A DNA stretch of 64,000 nt from Trypanosoma brucei (GCA_000002445.1 CH464491.1:448001-512000), one strand, 5' to 3'; shown: positions 45,988 through 54,871, counted from the stretch's first letter. Notes: generated from the sequence alone by a model not told the origin. A program made the numbers and translations.

Positions 45988-48654
45988 TCAGTACATTTCC
46001 TCCCCGTGAATGGAACCATCGGCGTTCAAAACACCATCGAAAGCGTCTGATATGCCCATTTCCGATGCAACGTCCCTAATCGCGGCAGCCAACTCCGCCT
46101 GTTGACTCTCCGTGAGAACCGGGGGTGAGTGATGATCTCCCCCACTTCGCTGCGGTCCTCCTTTGGTGAAAAGCTCGTTAAGTGAAGAATACAAAGAGGT
46201 TTCCAAACTCTCAGCCTCACCCGTTGAGGTGGTTTCGGCAGTGCGATGATGCTCTTCATGCGCCCTCCACAAGGCAAGATCAGTGATGCGTAGGAATTGA
46301 CGATAAGTTAGTGATGTGGGGTACGCACGAACCACTTCATTCGGCAGTTTAGCCGTCTGAGGAAGGATACCATAGTGATGAAGCAACTTAAGGACGCCCT
46401 CGCGGCGAATAGGCTGAAGGTTGAGCCTTACATCGTACTCCACTGAACCCAGAGCACCCTGAAGAACCTCTTCCTCAGCTGTAGTAATGATCAACAATCG
46501 CTTCCTTCGAGGCTGAGACACATCCCACTCACTGTGAGGGAACAACCCGGAACTCGACACCGACTTGAACTCGTTAATAGCAGACCTCAATGCATCCGCT
46601 GCACCCGAGTCACCACTGCGAACGTACCGTTCAACATTGTCAACAACTAAACAGTAATCCCCTTTAAAGGCACCGGCGTCACGGAGTGCATCGATGACCT
46701 CCTGGATGTCCCTCGCGGCTCGCCCGCTGAGCTCGCGCCCTGTGAGAAACTTCGTCACGCTAAAGCGAATGCTGCTCACCACATTTCTTGCAAACACAGT
46801 CTTTCCTGAGCCGCTGGAGCCATGAATAACAACTACAGCCGCATTTGTAATTTGGCTGTGCTGAATACTACGCATCAACCGCCGAACTACACCCATCCCG
46901 CGAGATATCGTTCCGTCAAAATCCACAAGCTTATCAACAGCGTTATCCAGTCCCTTACCGTCGCCGGCGAGATCTTGACCACCGTTTACCTGCGCCTTTG
47001 AGTCCCATACATCCCTCAACGCAAGTTGAAAGTCGCTATTGGTAACTTTAAAATGCTCAGTCGCTGCGCCAGAGAGTTCATCCTCAATACCAATATCCCC
47101 GGTGGGGATGCTTGTGTTGAGAGAACTATCGCGGAACCGTAACAATGCGTGACTGACCGCCGCACGAACCGTGCCAGCAACATCGGCACCAGAAAATCCA
47201 CCTGTTCGCTCTGCCAGTATATCCAAGCTGACATCTTCTGCAAGAAAATCCTTATCCCGTAGTTCCCGTGTGTGGATAAAAAACATCTCTCTTCGACCCT
47301 TAACGTCAGGTAGGGGAACCTCAATGACAACTTCAAACCGACCTGGGCGGAGAAGTGCACGGTCAATAGCATGTAACCTGTTCGTCAATCCAATAATAAG
47401 TATATTCCTTGCTTTATTCACGCCGTCCATGATGGTTAGAAATTGGTTAGTTAGTCCATCATACACAGCTTTCGTGGAGCTTTCCTCCCCCAAATCTGCA
47501 CGCCGTTTAAAGAGTGCATCGAGTTCATCCATAATGACAATGTGCAAGCTCTTGCTGTTTGCAGTTTCTTCATCAGCACCAGAAGCATGTCGCGTTCCCC
47601 CGTGCTCATCCTCATCATCATCATCGCCCCACATGTTGTTAGCGTCAAATAGCCTCCGAAGGTTCTTTTCGGAGTCACCAACGTACTTGGAAATAATGTC
47701 AGCCGCGTTGACAATAGTTACCCTCGTCCCTTTACCTTCCAGCTTGGCAATCATACGAGCAATAAGAGTCTTACCGGTTCCCGGCGGCCCATGGAGGAGT
47801 ACTCCACGTACAGGCGGAATATTAAGTGATTCCACCACCCCACGGAGTTGCCGCGTCCTACTCAAGAAAACGCGACGGAAAAGCTCATGTAGTTGCTCAC
47901 TTAATCCTCCAATACCAAGAGAAACCCACTCATCATTCATTGCAGAGTGTCGGACTCTACGGAACATATATTCTAAGGGGTCTTCGGCATCCTCCTCTTC
48001 ATCCTCCTCACCGCCCGAGTGCGATCCATTGCCATACGGCGTGAGGTCCAACTCCACTGCACGGGGGACGGAGGCAAGCGTAACAATTGTAGTCTTGTTA
48101 GAGTTGTCACTCGTTACAGTTTGAAGCAATTTCAGGTTCATCCAAGTGCTCCGTGTGGTCAGCCGTTCCAACCACAGCGGTTTATGCCTCAAACTATCCA
48201 TGGGATTAAGAAGGGTACACGACAAGATCTGCCGCGGGAACAGACTAGAGGGCCTCACATGAAGACACGGCATGGAAATTAAATCAAGATCCTCCTCACC
48301 TCCATGATGTGGTATTGGTGTGTGTTCCTCCAGAACTATGCTTAAGTTCCCCAGCTGTGGGAAACCGCGCCCCCGAACGGTGAGTTGTACCGGATGATAT
48401 GAATTCAAGTCAGAGAAGCACGAAATCGTCTGGCGACCCCTTTCCGTTAGCACAGGCCTAGTGCAGCCGGTAATCCACAATATCTCTAATCTTTGATAAT
48501 TGCTATATTTTGCAGGACCGCCGGGATGATATGAAGCCGCACCCAGATTAACGCTGTAGAGACACGCCACGCACGCGCAAAGAAGAAACAGTGATGAAAG
48601 CGGATTTAGCGTGCGAAACGCTTGCCTTTTGCTAACTGTGGTCTTGACTATCAT
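45988..48654 (-). CDS. NSF-like two-domain AAA+ ATPase with hydrophobic N-terminal segment
   Basis: 888-aa ORF. D1 motifs: GVLLHGPPGTGKTLIARMIAK, SKYVGDSEKNLRRLF, IVIMDELDAL, IIGLTNRLHAIDRALLRPGRFEVVIEVPLPDVKGR (compare NSF [35 protein letters not shown]). D2 has GSSGSGKT and a degenerate Walker B (VVDNVE). The N-terminus carries LSSLFLLCACVACLYSV. Confidence 0.8.
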   Translation of the reverse strand: MIVKTTVSKRQAFRTLNPLSSLFLLCACVACLYSVNLGAASYHPGGPAKYSNYQRLEILWITGCTRPVLTERGRQTISCFSDLNSYHPVQLTVRGRGFPQLGNLSIVLEEHTPIPHHGGEEDLDLISMPCLHVRPSSLFPRQILSCTLLNPMDSLRHKPLWLERLTTRSTWMNLKLLQTVTSDNSNKTTIVTLASVPRAVELDLTPYGNGSHSGGEEDEEEDAEDPLEYMFRRVRHSAMNDEWVSLGIGGLSEQLHELFRRVFLSRTRQLRGVVESLNIPPVRGVLLHGPPGTGKTLIARMIAKLEGKGTRVTIVNAADIISKYVGDSEKNLRRLFDANNMWGDDDDEDEHGGTRHASGADEETANSKSLHIVIMDELDALFKRRADLGEESSTKAVYDGLTNQFLTIMDGVNKARNILIIGLTNRLHAIDRALLRPGRFEVVIEVPLPDVKGRREMFFIHTRELRDKDFLAEDVSLDILAERTGGFSGADVAGTVRAAVSHALLRFRDSSLNTSIPTGDIGIEDELSGAATEHFKVTNSDFQLALRDVWDSKAQVNGGQDLAGDGKGLDNAVDKLVDFDGTISRGMGVVRRLMRSIQHSQITNAAVVVIHGSSGSGKTVFARNVVSSIRFSVTKFLTGRELSGRAARDIQEVIDALRDAGAFKGDYCLVVDNVERYVRSGDSGAADALRSAINEFKSVSSSGLFPHSEWDVSQPRRKRLLIITTAEEEVLQGALGSVEYDVRLNLQPIRREGVLKLLHHYGILPQTAKLPNEVVRAYPTSLTYRQFLRITDLALWRAHEEHHRTAETTSTGEAESLETSLYSSLNELFTKGGPQRSGGDHHSPPVLTESQQAELAAAIRDVASEMGISDAFDGVLNADGSIHGEEMY

Positions 48655-49016
48655 CCTACCAACAATCCCGCCCCTTTGTTGAACTCTAGGTGGGTTGGAG
48701 TACGAAGGAAAGGGAGGGGGAAAAACAATACCTCAGCGCAAGCGGCAAAGGATCAAAGAACAACATGTGCGTGCGTATTCACATAAATTTTCCTAACCAA
48801 GTGCTATCACAAGATGTGAGCTCGTGAAAGACCCAATATCAGAGCGCGATCCCGAGCAAAGTATTCTCATTTTCACCCCCGAATAAGATTTGAAAAAAAA
48901 AATGTCAAAAATAACGATAGTGGAAATTGAAAGAAATGACAAAGCCTGCGTCACAGCATAAAAAATAATAATGATTATGATGATAACGATCATATTCCAA
49001 GTCGAAACCAATCATG

Positions 49017-49583
49017 TTATTTATTTTTTCTCTTTTTTGGCGAGTTGTCTCCCGAACCAGGGGAGCCTGCCTGGGAAAGGGATTGTAAACATCGGATCGC
49101 AGTGAAAAATGGCGCAATTATCCACACCGAGCTCGGCAAAAGAACCATCAGTAACTTATCCAAATAGCCGATATGCCTCGTGTATTCCCCACCCTCCACG
49201 AAATCCATCACGAAGTACAGCAGAGTTTTACTGAAAGTCATAACGCTAACGACCGCTGCCAACTTGATAGCCGACTTCCAGTACCCGCTAAAGGAAAGAA
49301 GGAGGGCAAGTAAGCCAAGAGTGACTTCCAACAAATTCATCCAACTCTGCGCCACAACGAAGGCATCTTCATTCGGGGCGTAACGTCGGTCGTAAGTGGC
49401 GTAAACCGTCCACGGCTGAAATAAAACTAATTCGCCTAAAGGGTGTGGTGTATCAGGTGTTTTAGGGCGGTTAAGGACAAAAACAGCATCAAGCAACACA
49501 ACAGGTGCTGTCAAAAGCAACCAAGCCGTTGCGACCGTAGGGAGGCGCGGTTTCTCCATCGTCGTCATCTCCCCCTCGACCAA
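49017..49583 (-). CDS. Four-TM membrane protein (188 aa), family not identified
   Basis: Sense ORF with four hydrophobic segments (AWLLLTAPVVLLDAVFVL, LLEVTLGLLALLLSF, LAAVVSVMTFSKTLLYFVM, LLMVLLPSSVWIIAPFFTAI) and a basic C-terminal tail. Confidence 0.7.
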   Translation of the reverse strand: MVEGEMTTMEKPRLPTVATAWLLLTAPVVLLDAVFVLNRPKTPDTPHPLGELVLFQPWTVYATYDRRYAPNEDAFVVAQSWMNLLEVTLGLLALLLSFSGYWKSAIKLAAVVSVMTFSKTLLYFVMDFVEGGEYTRHIGYLDKLLMVLLPSSVWIIAPFFTAIRCLQSLSQAGSPGSGDNSPKKRKNK

Positions 49584-50137
49584 TTCCTCACAACTTACCT
49601 AATACAAACTGTTACAATGACCAAAGACTACTGCAACCGGGAGTAACCTGAAAAGGAAAGTGACTAGCAGAATGAGTAAACGGCATATTAAAAAAGAAAA
49701 AATAGCCGAGAGACTAGAAACGAATTCACCGGGAGGCAGAAGTCCAGTATGAACACTTTTATTGTAGAATGGTCAGGTATGTGAATGGGCCCCAGAAGGC
49801 TGCATTTTCCCCCATAATTTTTTCAAAGGGAATGAAAAAAAATGCGCAACTGGGCGGGGGTTCCCGCATCCCGCTTCCGCTGCATTACCTCCATTTCACA
49901 TTATCTCTAAAATCTCTCAAGTTACCTCCATCTGAATGCCTCAACTCGCGTCTTGTTAACGTCGTTATCTTGCCCTCCTCTTCACCTCCAAGTTAGCACA
50001 CGAAATTTTCTAAACAACCCATGTATTTATAATGGAGTAGCCCCTTGCAGCGGCTAACGAATTGTAGCCTTCCTCCAACAACGAAAGCGCCTCGCGTCCC
50101 TCCGCCACCACCGAGCCACCTCGGTTCATTACTACCG

Positions 50138-51850
50138 TTAGTTATGTTCATCATCATCATCGTCGTCGTCATCATCATCATCATCGTCATCGTCATCCCC
50201 AGTGTCGTCATCAGCGTAGTTTCCTGTGTCGTCATCATCATCCCCAGTGTCGTCGCTGCTAAGGGTGGTGTGATCATCATCACTCTCACGGTCATCCCCC
50301 CTACGACCGTACATGGTAGAGCTCTCGCTGTCGCATTCATCTTCGCTGTCCTCACCCTCGCCATCTTTATCGCTGTTATCATCTTCATCGTTGTCATCAT
50401 CGACAGGATCGTGATCGTATATGGAAACCTCGTCACTGCTGTCGTCGCCATCGCTGCTGTCTTCTTCACTGCCGTCACTGTTATCATTACTGTCACCGTC
50501 ACTGTCACCGTCACTCTCGTCATCAACAGGATCATCATCACGCGTAGAGGGTTCGTCGTCACTGCTGCCATCATCGTCCGAATCGTCGGTTTCGCTATCG
50601 TCACTGTAGGACGAGCTGTAAGACCCACTGCCATCATCAGATGAGGCAGCCGAAGAGCTTTCGTCGTCATCTTTCGCATGTCCTGAGGTTGCTTCGAAAG
50701 CGTCTGCTCTGGTTTCGACCTCCATATCGCTGCTCGACCTACCAGAATTCATTCTGAAAGTACTGGCCGCGGCGGAGGCAACCGCGGCGTGAGCGATAGC
50801 CGAGCCCACGGCGCTTGCCCCGGCGGTAGATCCTACAAATCGTTTAGGCGGGGTACGAGTGAGGGATGAAGCACGAACTGGAGCAGCGACCGTACGTTCT
50901 CCCCTCACCATCAACATTTTTGACACCCCTTCCCCACGCGCTTTCCTTGAGAAAGAGTCACCACAACTATCCTCCACGGCAACCGTCTCATCCACCTCCT
51001 CCATACTTCTATAGCGGTGCTCCTTTTTAGTGGTCACCTTTTTCTTTTGTTGAAGGGCATATATAGCCATCTCCCGCTTCACAAGTAGCTCATTCGTTAT
51101 ACGGGCATGGTATTGATGCTGGATACCGAACATATCCCCTAATACCGCGTCCAGGTATTTCATCACAAAAACGAGATTTTCCTCCTCGATGGTGGCGTTG
51201 AAACTTCGCCGATCATCCAAGTTGTACTTCGTCGCTGCCCCTCCCGCGTTCGCAGCATCATCATCCTCATCCTCATCGTCCAGTAGATTGGATCCATCCT
51301 CTGTGTTCTTCGGGCCTGCGGTCACCACTTTTGCAGTTACTTCACCTGCAAGCGCAAAAGCCGATGGTAGTGCAGGGAAGGACTTGCCTTCACGTGCACC
51401 AAAGCCTCCACCCTCCCCTCCTTGCCATCTAGGTATTGGCTTCAAATGTAGCGAAGAGTGTTGTTTTTCCATCGACACGTGCCGCATCTTACCCTCGAAC
51501 GCAGCCAGGAGTGATGCAACATCATAAGGCCGGAGAAAAATACGACCAAAAAAGTAGTCCCCCGTGATATCAGTACTCACTTTACCTCCATTTGGGGCTG
51601 TCCTGTCTTCAGAAATCATCTTCGCTGCCGCCTCCGGTGCCATTCCCACATGACTGTCGGGAGACTGCACACTTAGTACAAGGTGCCGCTGACGGTTGCT
51701 CTTCCACCGCCACAGCAACACAGCCGGGTACTCGACCTCTCCCTTCGCAATGCTTACGGGAGTGCGCAGATCCCGCACAAAAACACTGCGACCACCCGCC
51801 TTGAGAAAGACGGCAGAAGCAAAAGTTACGGCGGAGATGCGGCGCCACAT
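50138..51850 (-). CDS. MRP1-related (Whirly-like) protein with long acidic D/S/E-rich C-terminal tail
   Basis: 570-aa ORF with a presequence-like N-terminus. Three blocks are colinear with the adjacent MRP1 ORF: LVLSVQSPD/LLLISQYPQ, IFLRPYDVASLLAAFEGKMRHVSMEK/VRLRHVDLAYLVGVCKERVPRHRMET, and VFVMKYLDAVLGDMFGIQHQYH/VTLEHFLESALDESFGFRQHYA. The C-terminal ~170 aa are almost entirely D/S/E and end in poly-Asp. Confidence 0.8.
   Translation of the reverse strand: MWRRISAVTFASAVFLKAGGRSVFVRDLRTPVSIAKGEVEYPAVLLWRWKSNRQRHLVLSVQSPDSHVGMAPEAAAKMISEDRTAPNGGKVSTDITGDYFFGRIFLRPYDVASLLAAFEGKMRHVSMEKQHSSLHLKPIPRWQGGEGGGFGAREGKSFPALPSAFALAGEVTAKVVTAGPKNTEDGSNLLDDEDEDDDAANAGGAATKYNLDDRRSFNATIEEENLVFVMKYLDAVLGDMFGIQHQYHARITNELLVKREMAIYALQQKKKVTTKKEHRYRSMEEVDETVAVEDSCGDSFSRKARGEGVSKMLMVRGERTVAAPVRASSLTRTPPKRFVGSTAGASAVGSAIAHAAVASAAASTFRMNSGRSSSDMEVETRADAFEATSGHAKDDDESSSAASSDDGSGSYSSSYSDDSETDDSDDDGSSDDEPSTRDDDPVDDESDGDSDGDSNDNSDGSEEDSSDGDDSSDEVSIYDHDPVDDDNDEDDNSDKDGEGEDSEDECDSESSTMYGRRGDDRESDDDHTTLSSDDTGDDDDDTGNYADDDTGDDDDDDDDDDDDDDDDEHN
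50147..50660. repeat. Trinucleotide-biased low-complexity DNA (GAY/TCN/GAR codons on the minus strand)
   Basis: Runs such as catcatcatcgtcgtcgtcatcatcatcatcatcgtcatcgtcatc. The region is open in several frames on both strands, which produces the spurious ORFs 49993..50679(-) and 50045..50644(+). Confidence 0.9.
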
Positions 51851-52614
51851 TATTCTCTATGACGTACAATTAGAGCACTATGCACGCTTTTAATGTTGTT
51901 CTTCCCTCACTCCCCGCTTGTTTCGTTCCTCCTTCCAATGAACAACGATGATGAGAATAAACTCAAACGATATATGTCTATATATGCGTGTGTATGTTGG
52001 TGTCACTCGCGACAGAAGGATAAATGTCCAAAAAGATCTCCTACGAAGAAAAATACCCACAACCGGTCAATGAAAAGTAATCAAAAAAAGATTTAGGATG
52101 TGTGGTGGTGCAGCCCCAGGGATTAATGAACCAATGGGCCACAGTACCAGTCGATTACTGTCGGACGGTAGAGAAAAAACGAAGGCGGAAAGAGAAAGAG
52201 AAGTATCCAGCAATGTGTACATAAAAAGAAACAAGAGGTTCTTCAAACCTTGATAGGGCCAGGTAAACACGTAATAGCCTGGAGGCAGTGAAAGGAAGGG
52301 ATTTTTCTTTCTTGAAGGAGATTAAAGGGTTGGGGGGAAAAGTCGGATGCGGAAGGAAGACGCAAGAAGTTCCAAAGCGGGTTCAACCCAACACCACTAA
52401 ACCAAACAAATAGACGGTAGGTGCTCACTTGCATTGCACCAAACATCTTGGTACTCAATTCCTTCCAACAACACATCTGTTGTCTATCCTACACAAAAAT
52501 ACAAACACATACGTACGACCTCATCCCTCAACCTTTCCCTTTTCTTCTTTCTTCTTTCTGTTCCCTTCCTTTCCTTTTCATTCGTTCATTTACACACCCA
52601 CTTCCTTCATATCG

Positions 52615-53235
52615 TTAATGGTATCGCGATGTGTCACTTACAGATCGCTTCCGCCTTGCGCCTCCCTCCGCTGAAGATGTCGCTGCAATTTTCTCCCCTC
52701 CCTCTGCGGCCCGCGTGGCATAGTGCTGACGAAACCCGAAGCTCTCGTCCAATGCACTCTCCAAAAAGTGCTCCAACGTCACGGCGAAATGGTTATCAAA
52801 TTTAACAGACCAGTCCTCCATCCGCTGCGAGGCCACGCGATGCACCTTCCCGTGAAGGTGATACCCCTGTGCAGACTTCTCAAAATCGAGCGTATACGCC
52901 TTTGTTTCCATGCGATGACGTGGCACCCGCTCCTTACATACGCCGACAAGATACGCAAGGTCTACATGACGCAGCCTTACGGAAATGCGACGGTCCGCAT
53001 CAAACTGAGGACTTAAATCATTTGGATCCACTTTGCGTGGGCCCAGTTGTGGGTACTGAGAAATGAGAAGCAGCTTCCCATCAACGGCAACACGCGTCAT
53101 TGTTCCGAGCGCAGGGTCATCCCGCACGTCGTGAATTTCAAATTTAGGCAGTGACTGAACGCCGGAAAAAGTAGAAGCGCCACGGGACCAGGCTGAGCGC
53201 ATGGCCGGTCCACGCAGGCATGCGAGTCGAATCAT
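52615..53235 (-). CDS. MRP1: Mitochondrial guide-RNA-binding protein MRP1 (gBP21)
   Basis: 206-aa, Arg-rich ORF with a presequence (MIRLACLRGPAMRSAWSRG). Its size, composition and position relative to IFT88 and Nfs match my recollection of T. brucei MRP1/gBP21. I did not check it against a database. Confidence 0.7.
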   Translation of the reverse strand: MIRLACLRGPAMRSAWSRGASTFSGVQSLPKFEIHDVRDDPALGTMTRVAVDGKLLLISQYPQLGPRKVDPNDLSPQFDADRRISVRLRHVDLAYLVGVCKERVPRHRMETKAYTLDFEKSAQGYHLHGKVHRVASQRMEDWSVKFDNHFAVTLEHFLESALDESFGFRQHYATRAAEGGEKIAATSSAEGGARRKRSVSDTSRYH

Positions 53236-54226
53236 GGCTTTTCTGTGTCAGAATAAAAAAACAAGGGAAAATCACAAGAAAGACAAAAAAGGAAACAAAA
53301 ACGCACCTCGCACCCTATATGGACGGTTCCCTTAGCTTACTGTATCCCCCTTCTTCCCCTCTCTTACGCAGTGAAGAGTGGTTCTTCTGTGAAACTCATA
53401 TAGAGTGTGTGTAAAAATGGGGGAAAATGAGATGAGCAAATATAATATATTTATTTATATTTATACCAAGTATTTAATTCCGGTTAGAAGTAGTGCTACA
53501 TCACAATATCAATGCAGCACCTCGCTTATCATTCCCCCCCCGCCGTACAAACTCATTTCCTTTTGTTGCGACTGTTAACGTGATCCATTCTTGTGGATGT
53601 CAACTACTCAAAGTGGCTCAGCACAATAATAAGCATTCAAAAAGGTGGCATGGGTCTCAGATTTGCTTTCTTTTTTCCCTTTCTTTTCTTATAAATGTCC
53701 TTCCTCTGTTCCTTACGCCCCCTCCCTGTTGTTATAACGACCTCTTGCTGCTAAGAAACAAAAGCAAACAAAAACAAATAAGGAGGAGTACGGACATAAA
53801 GAAGGGTCAAGAAAATAAAACGATTTAAACGTTACAAAGCGAAGAAAAAAAAAGAAAATAAAGCCACGACAGTCCACAATGAATTATTGCCGTACAGTCC
53901 ACACACACACACACACACACTAAACACGTGAGTGGAGGTAATGGGATCTGATGAAGACGTGCAAGCAGCAAAACCAGTTCGTAAAATTGGGGTGAAGTGG
54001 CAGAAACAACTGTGTGACGAAACCAACACCACTAAATTCACAGAAACGTGAGCACACCGCCGTCGTCACCTATTTATTGCATGCTTCAGAGAGTAAGGGG
54101 AAAGGGAAAGGTAAGAAAATCAGTCAAATAACAAGGAACAGCTTACCTTGAGATACCGTTTAATCGAAGCTATTATTTGTTACTATTATTACTATTATTG
54201 TGTTGTGGTTCCCCACGACGCCACAT

Positions 54227-54871
54227 TCAATTCCGCACAACACACCACCCATCGGCATCCCGTTCGTACGCGTTCTTTCTTTTCTTACTCCTCCGTTTCT
54301 TCCGTTGCTCACTTTCCTCCACCTCATCCTTCATATCTAATCCGTCGCCCATTGTCTCCATTTCCTCTTCTTCATTCCCAACTACACCATCGTAAGTGTT
54401 GCTCATGGCTCCAGCACCAGCGAGTTCGTCCTCATCGTCCGCGCCGCCAACATTCATGGAGAGTTGCACGGGATTTACACGACGGTAAACCTCGAGACTC
54501 GCTACGTACCGCTCAACGGTGCTAAAGTCATTTTGGCAACATCTGCAGTACATGTCATGTAAGACGTCACCGACTTCCTTCATACTGTCATCCTCTACAA
54601 TAACCGAGCGAGCTTCACCAAAAAAGTTTTCAAAGAATATCTCCAAATCATCCGAGTACACTTCACCATCCTTCTGAAACCATGACACCAGCTCACGATA
54701 CATTGACGTAAGTGCTGAGAGATCGCAGTGCTGCGAAACAAGATGTAACGCCGTCCATTGATTTAGCACCGCATCCAAACCGACAATAAACCGTTGAAAC
54801 TGCTCCGCTGTGGCGCGATACGGCTGCCGCATTAACTGGAGTCCTACTGGTACTTGTTGTTGCTGCTGCAT
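54227..54871 (-). CDS. Pre-rRNA processing protein TSR2-like
   Basis: 214-aa ORF. FIVGLDAVLNQWTALHLV..., then LEIFFENFFGE...VEDDSMKEVGDVL, then an acidic C-terminus. This follows the TSR2 family pattern (W.aL..A, led.L...m..eF....eD.S..ev) as I remember it. Confidence 0.6.
   Translation of the reverse strand: MQQQQQVPVGLQLMRQPYRATAEQFQRFIVGLDAVLNQWTALHLVSQHCDLSALTSMYRELVSWFQKDGEVYSDDLEIFFENFFGEARSVIVEDDSMKEVGDVLHDMYCRCCQNDFSTVERYVASLEVYRRVNPVQLSMNVGGADDEDELAGAGAMSNTYDGVVGNEEEEMETMGDGLDMKDEVEESEQRKKRRSKKRKNAYERDADGWCVVRN

Follow-up and report, generated by a model that had tools for sequence, protein, structure and literature searches.

The window analyzed here is a stretch of 64,000 nucleotides from Trypanosoma brucei (GCA_000002445.1 CH464491.1:448001-512000) that carries the gene for MRP1 and, downstream of it, an open reading frame (ORF) encoding a protein of 570 amino acids (aa), the product of gene Tb927.11.1700, hereafter referred to as X. 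MRP1 and MRP2 form a guide-RNA-binding, RNA-annealing heterotetramer of kinetoplastid mitochondria and, to our knowledge, their family has never been taken to include more than these two members. We found that X is very probably an ancient and highly divergent third paralogue of this family, which is imported into the mitochondrion and combines a Whirly core with a disordered tail. A preliminary description of the locus had already proposed a third family member beside MRP1, and this proposal is borne out by profile comparisons, structure searches with Foldseek and a conserved gene order. The two genes are the following:

50138..51850, − strand: X, Tb927.11.1700 (Tb11.55.0010, UniProt Q386Y4), ORF including the stop codon, 570 aa
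52615..53235, − strand: MRP1/gBP21, Tb927.11.1710, 206 aa (PDB 2gia_B, E=2e-123; Pfam PF09387, E=7e-32)

Both ORFs and their coordinates had been given correctly in the preliminary description, and its naming of MRP1 agrees with the PDB and Pfam matches listed above. X was identified as Tb927.11.1700 because its calculated mass of 61.63 kDa (61,630 Da) matches exactly the value tabulated for this gene (PMC5436138 supplement), and the calculated mass of MRP1 (23,253 Da, or 23.253 kDa) likewise equals the entry for Tb927.11.1710 in the same supplement. The window accordingly belongs to T. brucei chromosome 11. The current annotation of Tb927.11.1700 is 'hypothetical protein, conserved' (PMC5436138, PMC11349236). 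X lies 764 bp downstream of MRP1 and is transcribed in the same direction. MRP2 had been thought to be encoded elsewhere, and indeed no MRP2-like ORF came up when the window's 411 six-frame ORF segments were scanned with the X hidden Markov model (HMM); the MRP2 gene of T. brucei is Tb927.11.13280.

Orthologues of X were gathered from a Trypanosoma search and from an exhaustive HMM search of 1.84 billion protein representatives. A word-indexed homologue search performed poorly owing to low-complexity words. Seventeen sequences of the N-terminal domain of X were aligned (alignment A2), as were 24 MRP1 sequences (alignment A3). AlphaFold2 run on A2 returned a model with a predicted TM-score of 0.71, in which 148 residues had a predicted local distance difference test score (pLDDT) of at least 90, and in a separate full-length model residues 25-272 alone were folded. 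When compared against the PDB with Foldseek, the top seven matches were all chains of MRP1 or MRP2. Structure-based sequence identity to MRP1/MRP2 was 10-16%, and the next structural match stood at 6.2. Both models showed the topology ββββα-linker-ββββα within one chain, which is that defined for type I PC4-like/Whirly proteins (PMC7549692). As modelled, residues 25-272 are a single-chain Whirly domain with three lineage-specific loop insertions. Its parts are located as follows:

51488..51778, − strand: Whirly repeat 1, residues 25-121 (AlphaFold2 pLDDT 90-97 in strands and helix; hhalign)
51026..51487, − strand: Whirly repeat 2, residues 122-275 (AlphaFold2 models; hhalign and HMM alignments to MRP1 repeat 2/α2)
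51233..51322, − strand: acidic loop insertion LLDDEDEDDDAANAGG..., residues 177-206 (net charge −9; pLDDT <50; between β7 and β8)

Specifically, repeat 1 comprises β1 (25-36), β2 (39-50), β3 (53-62), β4 (about 100-106) and α1 (108-118), with a low-confidence loop insertion at residues 63-100. Repeat 2 comprises β5 (125-129), β6 (132-138), a loop (139-163), β7 (164-176), β8 (207-222) and α2, a long helix (223-272/275) bearing an L-x3-L-x3-FG motif. The Whirly-like core anticipated from the sequence was thus recovered by the AlphaFold2 and Foldseek check, MRP1 and MRP2 being the top PDB matches. The acidic insertion that had been described also exists, but it is situated inside repeat 2 and not between the two half-domains, and it is missing from P0020 and P0021, two short bodonid-like homologues that possibly derive from bodonids.

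Profile-to-profile comparison placed X in the same family. Aligning A2 to A3 with hhalign gave a probability of 90.8% (P=1.2e-6) over 89 columns, and the score of 50.8 was approximately 13 standard deviations above the 14.0±2.8 (maximum 24.4) obtained for 100 column-shuffled MRP1 alignments; a reversed-profile control scored 12.7. An MRP1 HMM built without any X sequence assigned 29.0 bits to the short 312-aa homologue P0020 (E=4e-7 in a proteome-sized search), above the 23.9-25.7 bits of T. brucei MRP2, and 18.0 bits to P0021. The alignment of P0020 to this HMM runs almost without gaps from α1 through α2. In the reverse direction, the X HMM scored MRP1 and MRP2 equally (13.6 bits each) and ranked MRP1 second over the ORF segments of the window (E=7e-4). 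Judged by these profiles, X is as full a member of the MRP superfamily as MRP2 is, and appears to be roughly equidistant from MRP1 and MRP2, which makes it a third branch of the family and not a copy of MRP1.

Residues that do not vary in either family occupy matching positions in X and MRP1 (A112/A94, L233/L158, L237/L162, and F241/F166). X has six conserved basic residues, and four of them (R55, R103, R107, and K174) align with conserved K54, R83, R89, and R133 of MRP1. hhalign also pairs FLRPYDVASLL of X with RLRHVDLAYLV of MRP1. Of the three colinear blocks that had been singled out, two (YLDAVLGDMFGIQHQYH versus FLESALDESFGFRQHY, and IFLRPYDVASLL...MRHVSMEK versus VRLRHVDLAYLV...PRHRMET) fall in the same register in the alignment of A2 to A3. 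The third, LVLSVQSPD versus LLLISQYPQ, belongs to the equivalent strand β3 but is not significant alone, and in the extended hhalign alignment it is one residue off the proposed register with near-zero confidence.

None of this was visible in comparisons of single sequences. With BLASTP, X and MRP1 had no significant match, the helix block appearing only at E=95, and the best Smith-Waterman score (39) was equalled by 171 of 2000 shuffles (p ~0.09). A Pfam scan returned no PF09387 (gathering score 25.3 bits) or Whirly match for X or for any of 17 family members, and searches of PDB sequences (phmmer/hmmsearch) with X, with the X profile or with P0020 returned no MRP match. Such single-sequence nulls are a weak test, however, because phmmer with MRP1 alone misses even the accepted paralogue MRP2. 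Pairwise similarity of the blocks is therefore no better than chance, but the profile score exceeds that of all 100 shuffled controls, so that the signal is real but can be established by profiles and structure only.

X is imported into the mitochondrion via an N-terminal presequence, located as follows:

51779..51850, − strand: presequence-like N-terminus MWRRISAVTFASAVFLKAGGRSVF, residues 1-24 (charge +4, no D/E; predicted helix 8-17)

The preliminary description had remarked on this N-terminus, which agrees with its charge of +4, the absence of acidic residues, the modelled helix and a positive TargetP prediction (PMC5436138 supplement). It had also called for a check of mitochondrial localisation, which published proteomics provides: Tb927.11.1700 belongs to the mitochondrial reference set (Panigrahi/Mach proteome column) and carries the flag for the ATOM40-dependent importome, its depletion ratio (0.71) being close to that of MRP1 and MRP2 (0.70; PMC5436138 supplement). 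X was detected in several published proteomes with 6-12 peptides, and its summed mass spectrometry intensities reached approximately one-third to one-sixth of the MRP1 values from these experiments. In one study, where it was quantified with 6-9 peptides, its level was unchanged on depletion of Pam16/Pam18 (ratios about 0.93-1.04; PMC11349236).

Downstream of the core, the protein continues into a long disordered region whose features are listed below:

50726..51025, − strand: linker, residues 276-375, disordered, mildly basic and Ser/Ala-rich (pLDDT <50, no secondary structure)
51005..51016, − strand: RYRS motif, residues 279-282, ~35 residues past the FGIEH end of α2
50141..50725, − strand: D/E/S tail, residues 376-570, disordered (pLDDT 31-46)
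50148..50197, no strand assigned: trinucleotide microsatellite, (TCA)n on the + strand (Tandem Repeats Finder, period 3, 16.7 copies)

Residues 277-570 had pLDDT values of 31-46 and no secondary structure in the full-length model. The tail proper contains 93 D/E and 35 S among its 195 residues, carries a net charge of −86 and terminates in D16-EHN, in full agreement with the extreme D/S/E tail ending in poly-Asp that had been reported earlier. The terminal poly-Asp is encoded by the microsatellite, read as GAT/GAC codons on the − strand. As a whole, X is acidic (pI 4.2), and its structured core is basic (pI 9.6; MRP1 core, pI 8.9). The opposite charge formerly ascribed to X relative to MRP1 is consequently true of the whole protein, through its disordered tail and loop insertions, but it is a property of these disordered parts only, because the folded core is basic like that of MRP1.

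Some further observations concern the sequence of this region. A second trinucleotide repeat (TCA/TCG, 51256-51277 on the + strand) encodes part of the acidic loop, again as GAT/GAC codons, and both repeats create long spurious ORFs in other frames; the number of copies in such arrays probably differs from strain to strain. RYRS is shared by Trypanosoma, Phytomonas and two giant homologues, P0014 and P0018, and takes the form RYAS-ELED in P0021 as well as P0054. In a linker that is otherwise not conserved, it might serve as a linear motif or a phosphosite. The T. b. equiperdum orthologue (P0001, DPX39_110023200) is annotated from Met70, a start that would delete β1-β3, and it leaves the acidic frame after 'DDGSGS' for a Thr/Met-rich alternative frame, equivalent to the window ORF 49993-50679 on the − strand. 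Within a tail so rich in repeats, this switch looks like a frameshift or an error of assembly, and all other Trypanosoma orthologues back the acidic frame.

X and MRP1 are part of a conserved block of genes, of which the flanking members in T. brucei are the following:

54227..54871, − strand: TSR2-like (WGG) protein Tb927.11.1720, upstream neighbour (Pfam PF10273, 28.3 bits; 24.6 kDa entry)
49017..49583, − strand: small multi-pass membrane protein, downstream neighbour (ORF; resembles a gene of locus L005 with a weak Pfam EBP match)

Gene order was compared between positions 45988-54871 of the window and the loci L001, L003, L005, and L006. The order TSR2-like (WGG), MRP1, X, and EBP-like membrane protein is kept from T. 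brucei to Leishmania and to divergent kinetoplastids. On chromosome 27 of L. major, WGG and MRP1 are followed by X, which has 647 aa and matches the X HMM at E=1.5e-82, and then by a gene for a protein of 196 aa. L003, a compact contig of a very divergent kinetoplastid, carries WGG, MRP and X (P0020), with X only 21% identical. Two further lineages have X next after MRP and an EBP-like gene next after X, which in L005 is the gene with the weak Pfam EBP match. T. grayi and T. vivax have orthologues of MRP1 and X on same-sized contigs. Since the MRP1-X order is shared across the sampled lineages, the pair predates their divergence. X most likely arose by tandem duplication beside MRP1 before the sampled kinetoplastid lineages split, which we infer as the simplest origin. 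Beyond the conserved block the order differs: an AAA ATPase gene lies further downstream in the T. brucei window, L. major has a gene for a TPR protein, and L003 has one for a CH-domain protein.

The hmmsearch with the X profile against the 1.84 billion protein representatives yielded 21 matches, which were orthologues of X and included neither MRP1 nor MRP2; one of the 21 (P0016) was spurious. Named matches came from kinetoplastids, except for one from a ciliate transcriptome. P0016, a bacterial-type Ig-like repeat protein of 4341 aa with 82 bits to the X profile, was rejected as a repeat-amplified false positive: it consists of 32 tandem repeats of ~110 aa, each of which matches the β1-β3 region weakly (E 0.02-5), and their scores are summed. 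The homologue recorded in the transcriptome of the ciliate Platyophrya macrostoma (P0021/P0053, MMETSP) is most likely contamination from a bodonid kinetoplastid and not a ciliate gene. X is thus restricted to kinetoplastids, nuclear-encoded and mitochondrially imported, as the MRP family is (search results together with PMC5436138 supplement). The exact sequence of X was not found in a collection of 15 billion proteins.

Across these orthologues the C-terminal region differed strongly between lineages. Besides the Trypanosoma sequences, we compared the C-termini of P0005-P0012, P0017, P0020, P0021, P0054 and L001:12238-14181. A strongly negative tail (net charge −47 to −77 in the orthologues) was confined to Trypanosoma. 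In Leishmaniinae, Phytomonas and the short homologues P0020 and P0021, an acidic patch is followed by a Lys-rich C-terminus ending in a hydrophobic motif, examples of which outside Trypanosoma are ...TMSF, ...TMAF, ...DIFDL, and ...LLFDF. The tails of Leishmaniinae share a conserved block of ~70 residues (RFVRDGSVAAAEV...GAFRS..GEV.GTF.YER). In Trypanosoma, both this block and the Lys-rich/hydrophobic C-terminus are lost or replaced by D/E/S repeats. The ancestral protein probably began with a presequence and a Whirly core, to which a short RY-x-S motif and a disordered tail of bipolar character were attached. Giant versions also occur in kinetoplastids, namely P0014 (1403 aa, L004:2032-6243) and P0018 (1623 aa), which have N-terminal extensions of ~200 residues in the ORFs as called and tails of 900-1150 residues. 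The contigs of both are lower in GC, with a fraction of 0.48 in L004, where the giant gene is still directly downstream of an MRP1 gene.

Among known systems, X most resembles MRP1/gBP21 and MRP2/gBP25 (PF09387; PDB 2gia, 2gid, and 2gje), with which it shares restriction to kinetoplastids, mitochondrial import and a single-chain ββββα-ββββα Whirly fold. Motifs common to the three proteins are L-x3-L-x3-FG in α2 and (R/L)-L-R-x-x-D-(V/L)-A at the β4/α1 junction, and with MRP1 in particular X has in common a basic folded core, aligned conserved basic residues and an adjoining gene. On the other hand, X falls below the Pfam threshold, is as distant as the structure-based identity given above implies, and differs from both proteins in its three loop insertions (one of them acidic) and in an α2 of ~50 residues. 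It is also ~2.5 to 3 times larger. MRP-type proteins are small (about 21-25 kDa) and strongly basic, and X is neither (61.6 kDa); with its disordered tail of ~300 residues, the protein is acidic overall (pI 4.2 versus 9.6 for whole MRP1). Finally, neither the MRP1/2 crystals nor the published lists of editing factors that were examined include X. The architecture of X, a Whirly core with a long disordered tail, is new within the MRP family.

More distant parallels are found in other members of the same fold. The plant Whirlies (p24/PBF-2, WHY1-3; PDB 1l3a, 3n1h, and 4kop) are organelle-targeted like X, but show no detectable sequence relationship to it (no Pfam Whirly match), and they are homotetrameric binders of single-stranded DNA (ssDNA) with a short tail, in contrast to the ~300 residues of X. 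Their C-terminal acidic/aromatic tail has been reported to autoregulate DNA binding, and in concept the tail of X is comparable. PC4 similarly joins a domain of the PC4-like superfamily to a Ser/acidic disordered segment. The SEAC region of PC4 and the acidic tails of T7 gp2.5, bacterial SSB and HMGB1 are all cases of a binding domain accompanied by a Ser/Asp/Glu-rich disordered segment, and such segments compete with nucleic acid for a basic surface or recruit partners, an activity that CK2-type phosphorylation can tune. SsgA and SsgB of actinomycetes (PDB 3cm1, 6suj, and 6slc), on the other hand, act in bacterial cell division and are not known to bind nucleic acid; they have no sequence similarity to X and no tail.

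By analogy with these systems, we propose that the basic β-sheet core of X would bind single-stranded nucleic acid, most likely mitochondrial RNA, in the way MRP1 and MRP2 bind RNA through their β-sheets. We consider the chances of such binding to be evenly balanced; the proposal is made because MRP1 has conserved basic residues at the positions of R55, R103, R107 and K174 and because the closest relatives of X bind RNA. The ~300 disordered C-terminal residues have expanded in Trypanosoma into a hyperacidic, Ser-rich tail, partly by growth of trinucleotide repeats. Acting within the molecule or between molecules, this polyanion might compete with nucleic acid (autoinhibition) or dock basic partners such as MRP1/2, in a manner comparable to the acidic tails described above and to the trypanosome pair p22-RBP16, a tentative suggestion that we would sooner doubt than accept.

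Several points weigh against the placement of X as a third family member or against the functions proposed for it. A PF09387 match is absent even at E values up to 10 for X and 17 relatives, and T. brucei X itself obtained only 10.2 bits with the MRP1 HMM. The Whirly fold alone is no proof of RNA binding, because SsgA and SsgB use it without nucleic acid. Likewise, the extreme acidity of the tail is found in Trypanosoma only, so that a mechanism dependent on the tail cannot be the ancestral function. MRP1/2 crystallised as a two-protein heterotetramer without a third subunit (PDB 2gia), X is in no solved PDB structure, editing and mitoribosome complexes included, and it does not figure in the RNA-editing, MRB1 or mitoribosome reference lists (PMC5436138 supplement). 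The literature, searched with a coverage that leaves out most subscription journals, contained no main-text mention of Tb927.11.1700 by gene, old or UniProt identifiers, and no description of a third kinetoplastid MRP/Whirly protein in a 2020 review of PC4-like proteins, a 2026 review of editing complexes or other publications. X is also unmentioned in the available part of the supplementary files of the TrypTag paper.

The resemblance between X and the MRPs could be convergent or spurious, an unrelated protein having acquired a Whirly-like AlphaFold model by accident and its blocks by chance. The null pairwise tests (BLASTP E=95 and 171 of 2000 shuffles reaching the Smith-Waterman score), the missing Pfam MRP match and a structure-based identity of only 10-16% are what such a coincidence would look like. 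However, phmmer with MRP1 alone misses MRP2 too, the hhalign P value of 1.2e-6 lies with a score above all 100 shuffled controls, and the MRP1 HMM ranks P0020 (29 bits) over an accepted paralogue. The best structural matches in the whole PDB are MRP1 and MRP2, the invariant residues of both families coincide, and the tandem position beside MRP1 is conserved. We therefore regard convergence as very unlikely and effectively refuted by the profile, HMM and structure evidence. X could alternatively be a binder of kinetoplast DNA (kDNA), in single-stranded form, that acts like the plant Whirlies in kDNA maintenance, repair or replication and not on RNA. Proteins that bind ssDNA, T7 gp2.5 and bacterial SSB among them, typically have an acidic C-terminal tail in competition with the ssDNA. 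Yet the nearest structural and sequence relatives of X are the RNA-binding MRP1/2, the plant Whirly Pfam model has no match to X, X is absent from the available part of the supplementary files of a genome-wide kDNA-maintenance screen, and its level stayed at ~0.93-1.04 when the kDNA-replication regulators Pam16/Pam18 were depleted. A role on kDNA is thus decidedly unlikely.

An alternative of another kind accepts X as a relative of MRP1/2 and makes it a regulatory or alternative subunit of their annealing complex, which it would join via its Whirly helices or whose matchmaking it would gate through an RNA-mimicking tail. X shares its family and its organelle with MRP1/2, is equidistant from the two, has a gene kept beside MRP1 across kinetoplastids, and is abundant enough, at about one-third to one-sixth of the intensity of MRP1. 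There is also a precedent in trypanosome mitochondria, namely the stimulation of RBP16, a basic protein that binds RNA, by the acidic p22. Against this, MRP1/2 crystals and purified complexes hold two proteins only (PDB 2gia/2gid/2gje), X is missing from the editing and MRB1 lists compiled in PMC5436138 and from the 2026 review of editing complexes, adjacency within kinetoplastid polycistrons does not imply co-regulation, and the hyperacidic tail is specific to Trypanosoma. Taken together, we find a subunit role unlikely. In its most explicit form, which is distinctly unlikely, X would be a regulatory third MRP component whose core joins or competes with MRP1/MRP2 and whose polyanionic, possibly phosphorylated tail would mimic RNA and occupy the basic annealing platform, so that matchmaking between guide RNA and mRNA would be gated by transcript or by life-cycle stage. 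If true, this could explain the partial, transcript-specific phenotypes of MRP1/2 knock-down.

The placement of X as a third, divergent paralogue of MRP1 and MRP2 bears on a family whose two known members were the earliest guide-RNA-binding proteins to be discovered in the mitochondria of trypanosomes. Our analysis suggests that this family very probably has a third member, which is conserved in the sampled kinetoplastids, expressed, mitochondrially imported, and encoded beside MRP1 since before these lineages split. The 'hypothetical' gene Tb927.11.1700, which has orthologues in Leishmania, T. cruzi and elsewhere, thereby gains a structural and a putative functional annotation, and X is an instance in nature of a Whirly/PC4-like domain joined to a fast-evolving polyanionic tail. 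X is a candidate for redundancy with MRP1/2 or for their regulation, and for RNA- or kDNA-binding activities that are as yet unexplained.

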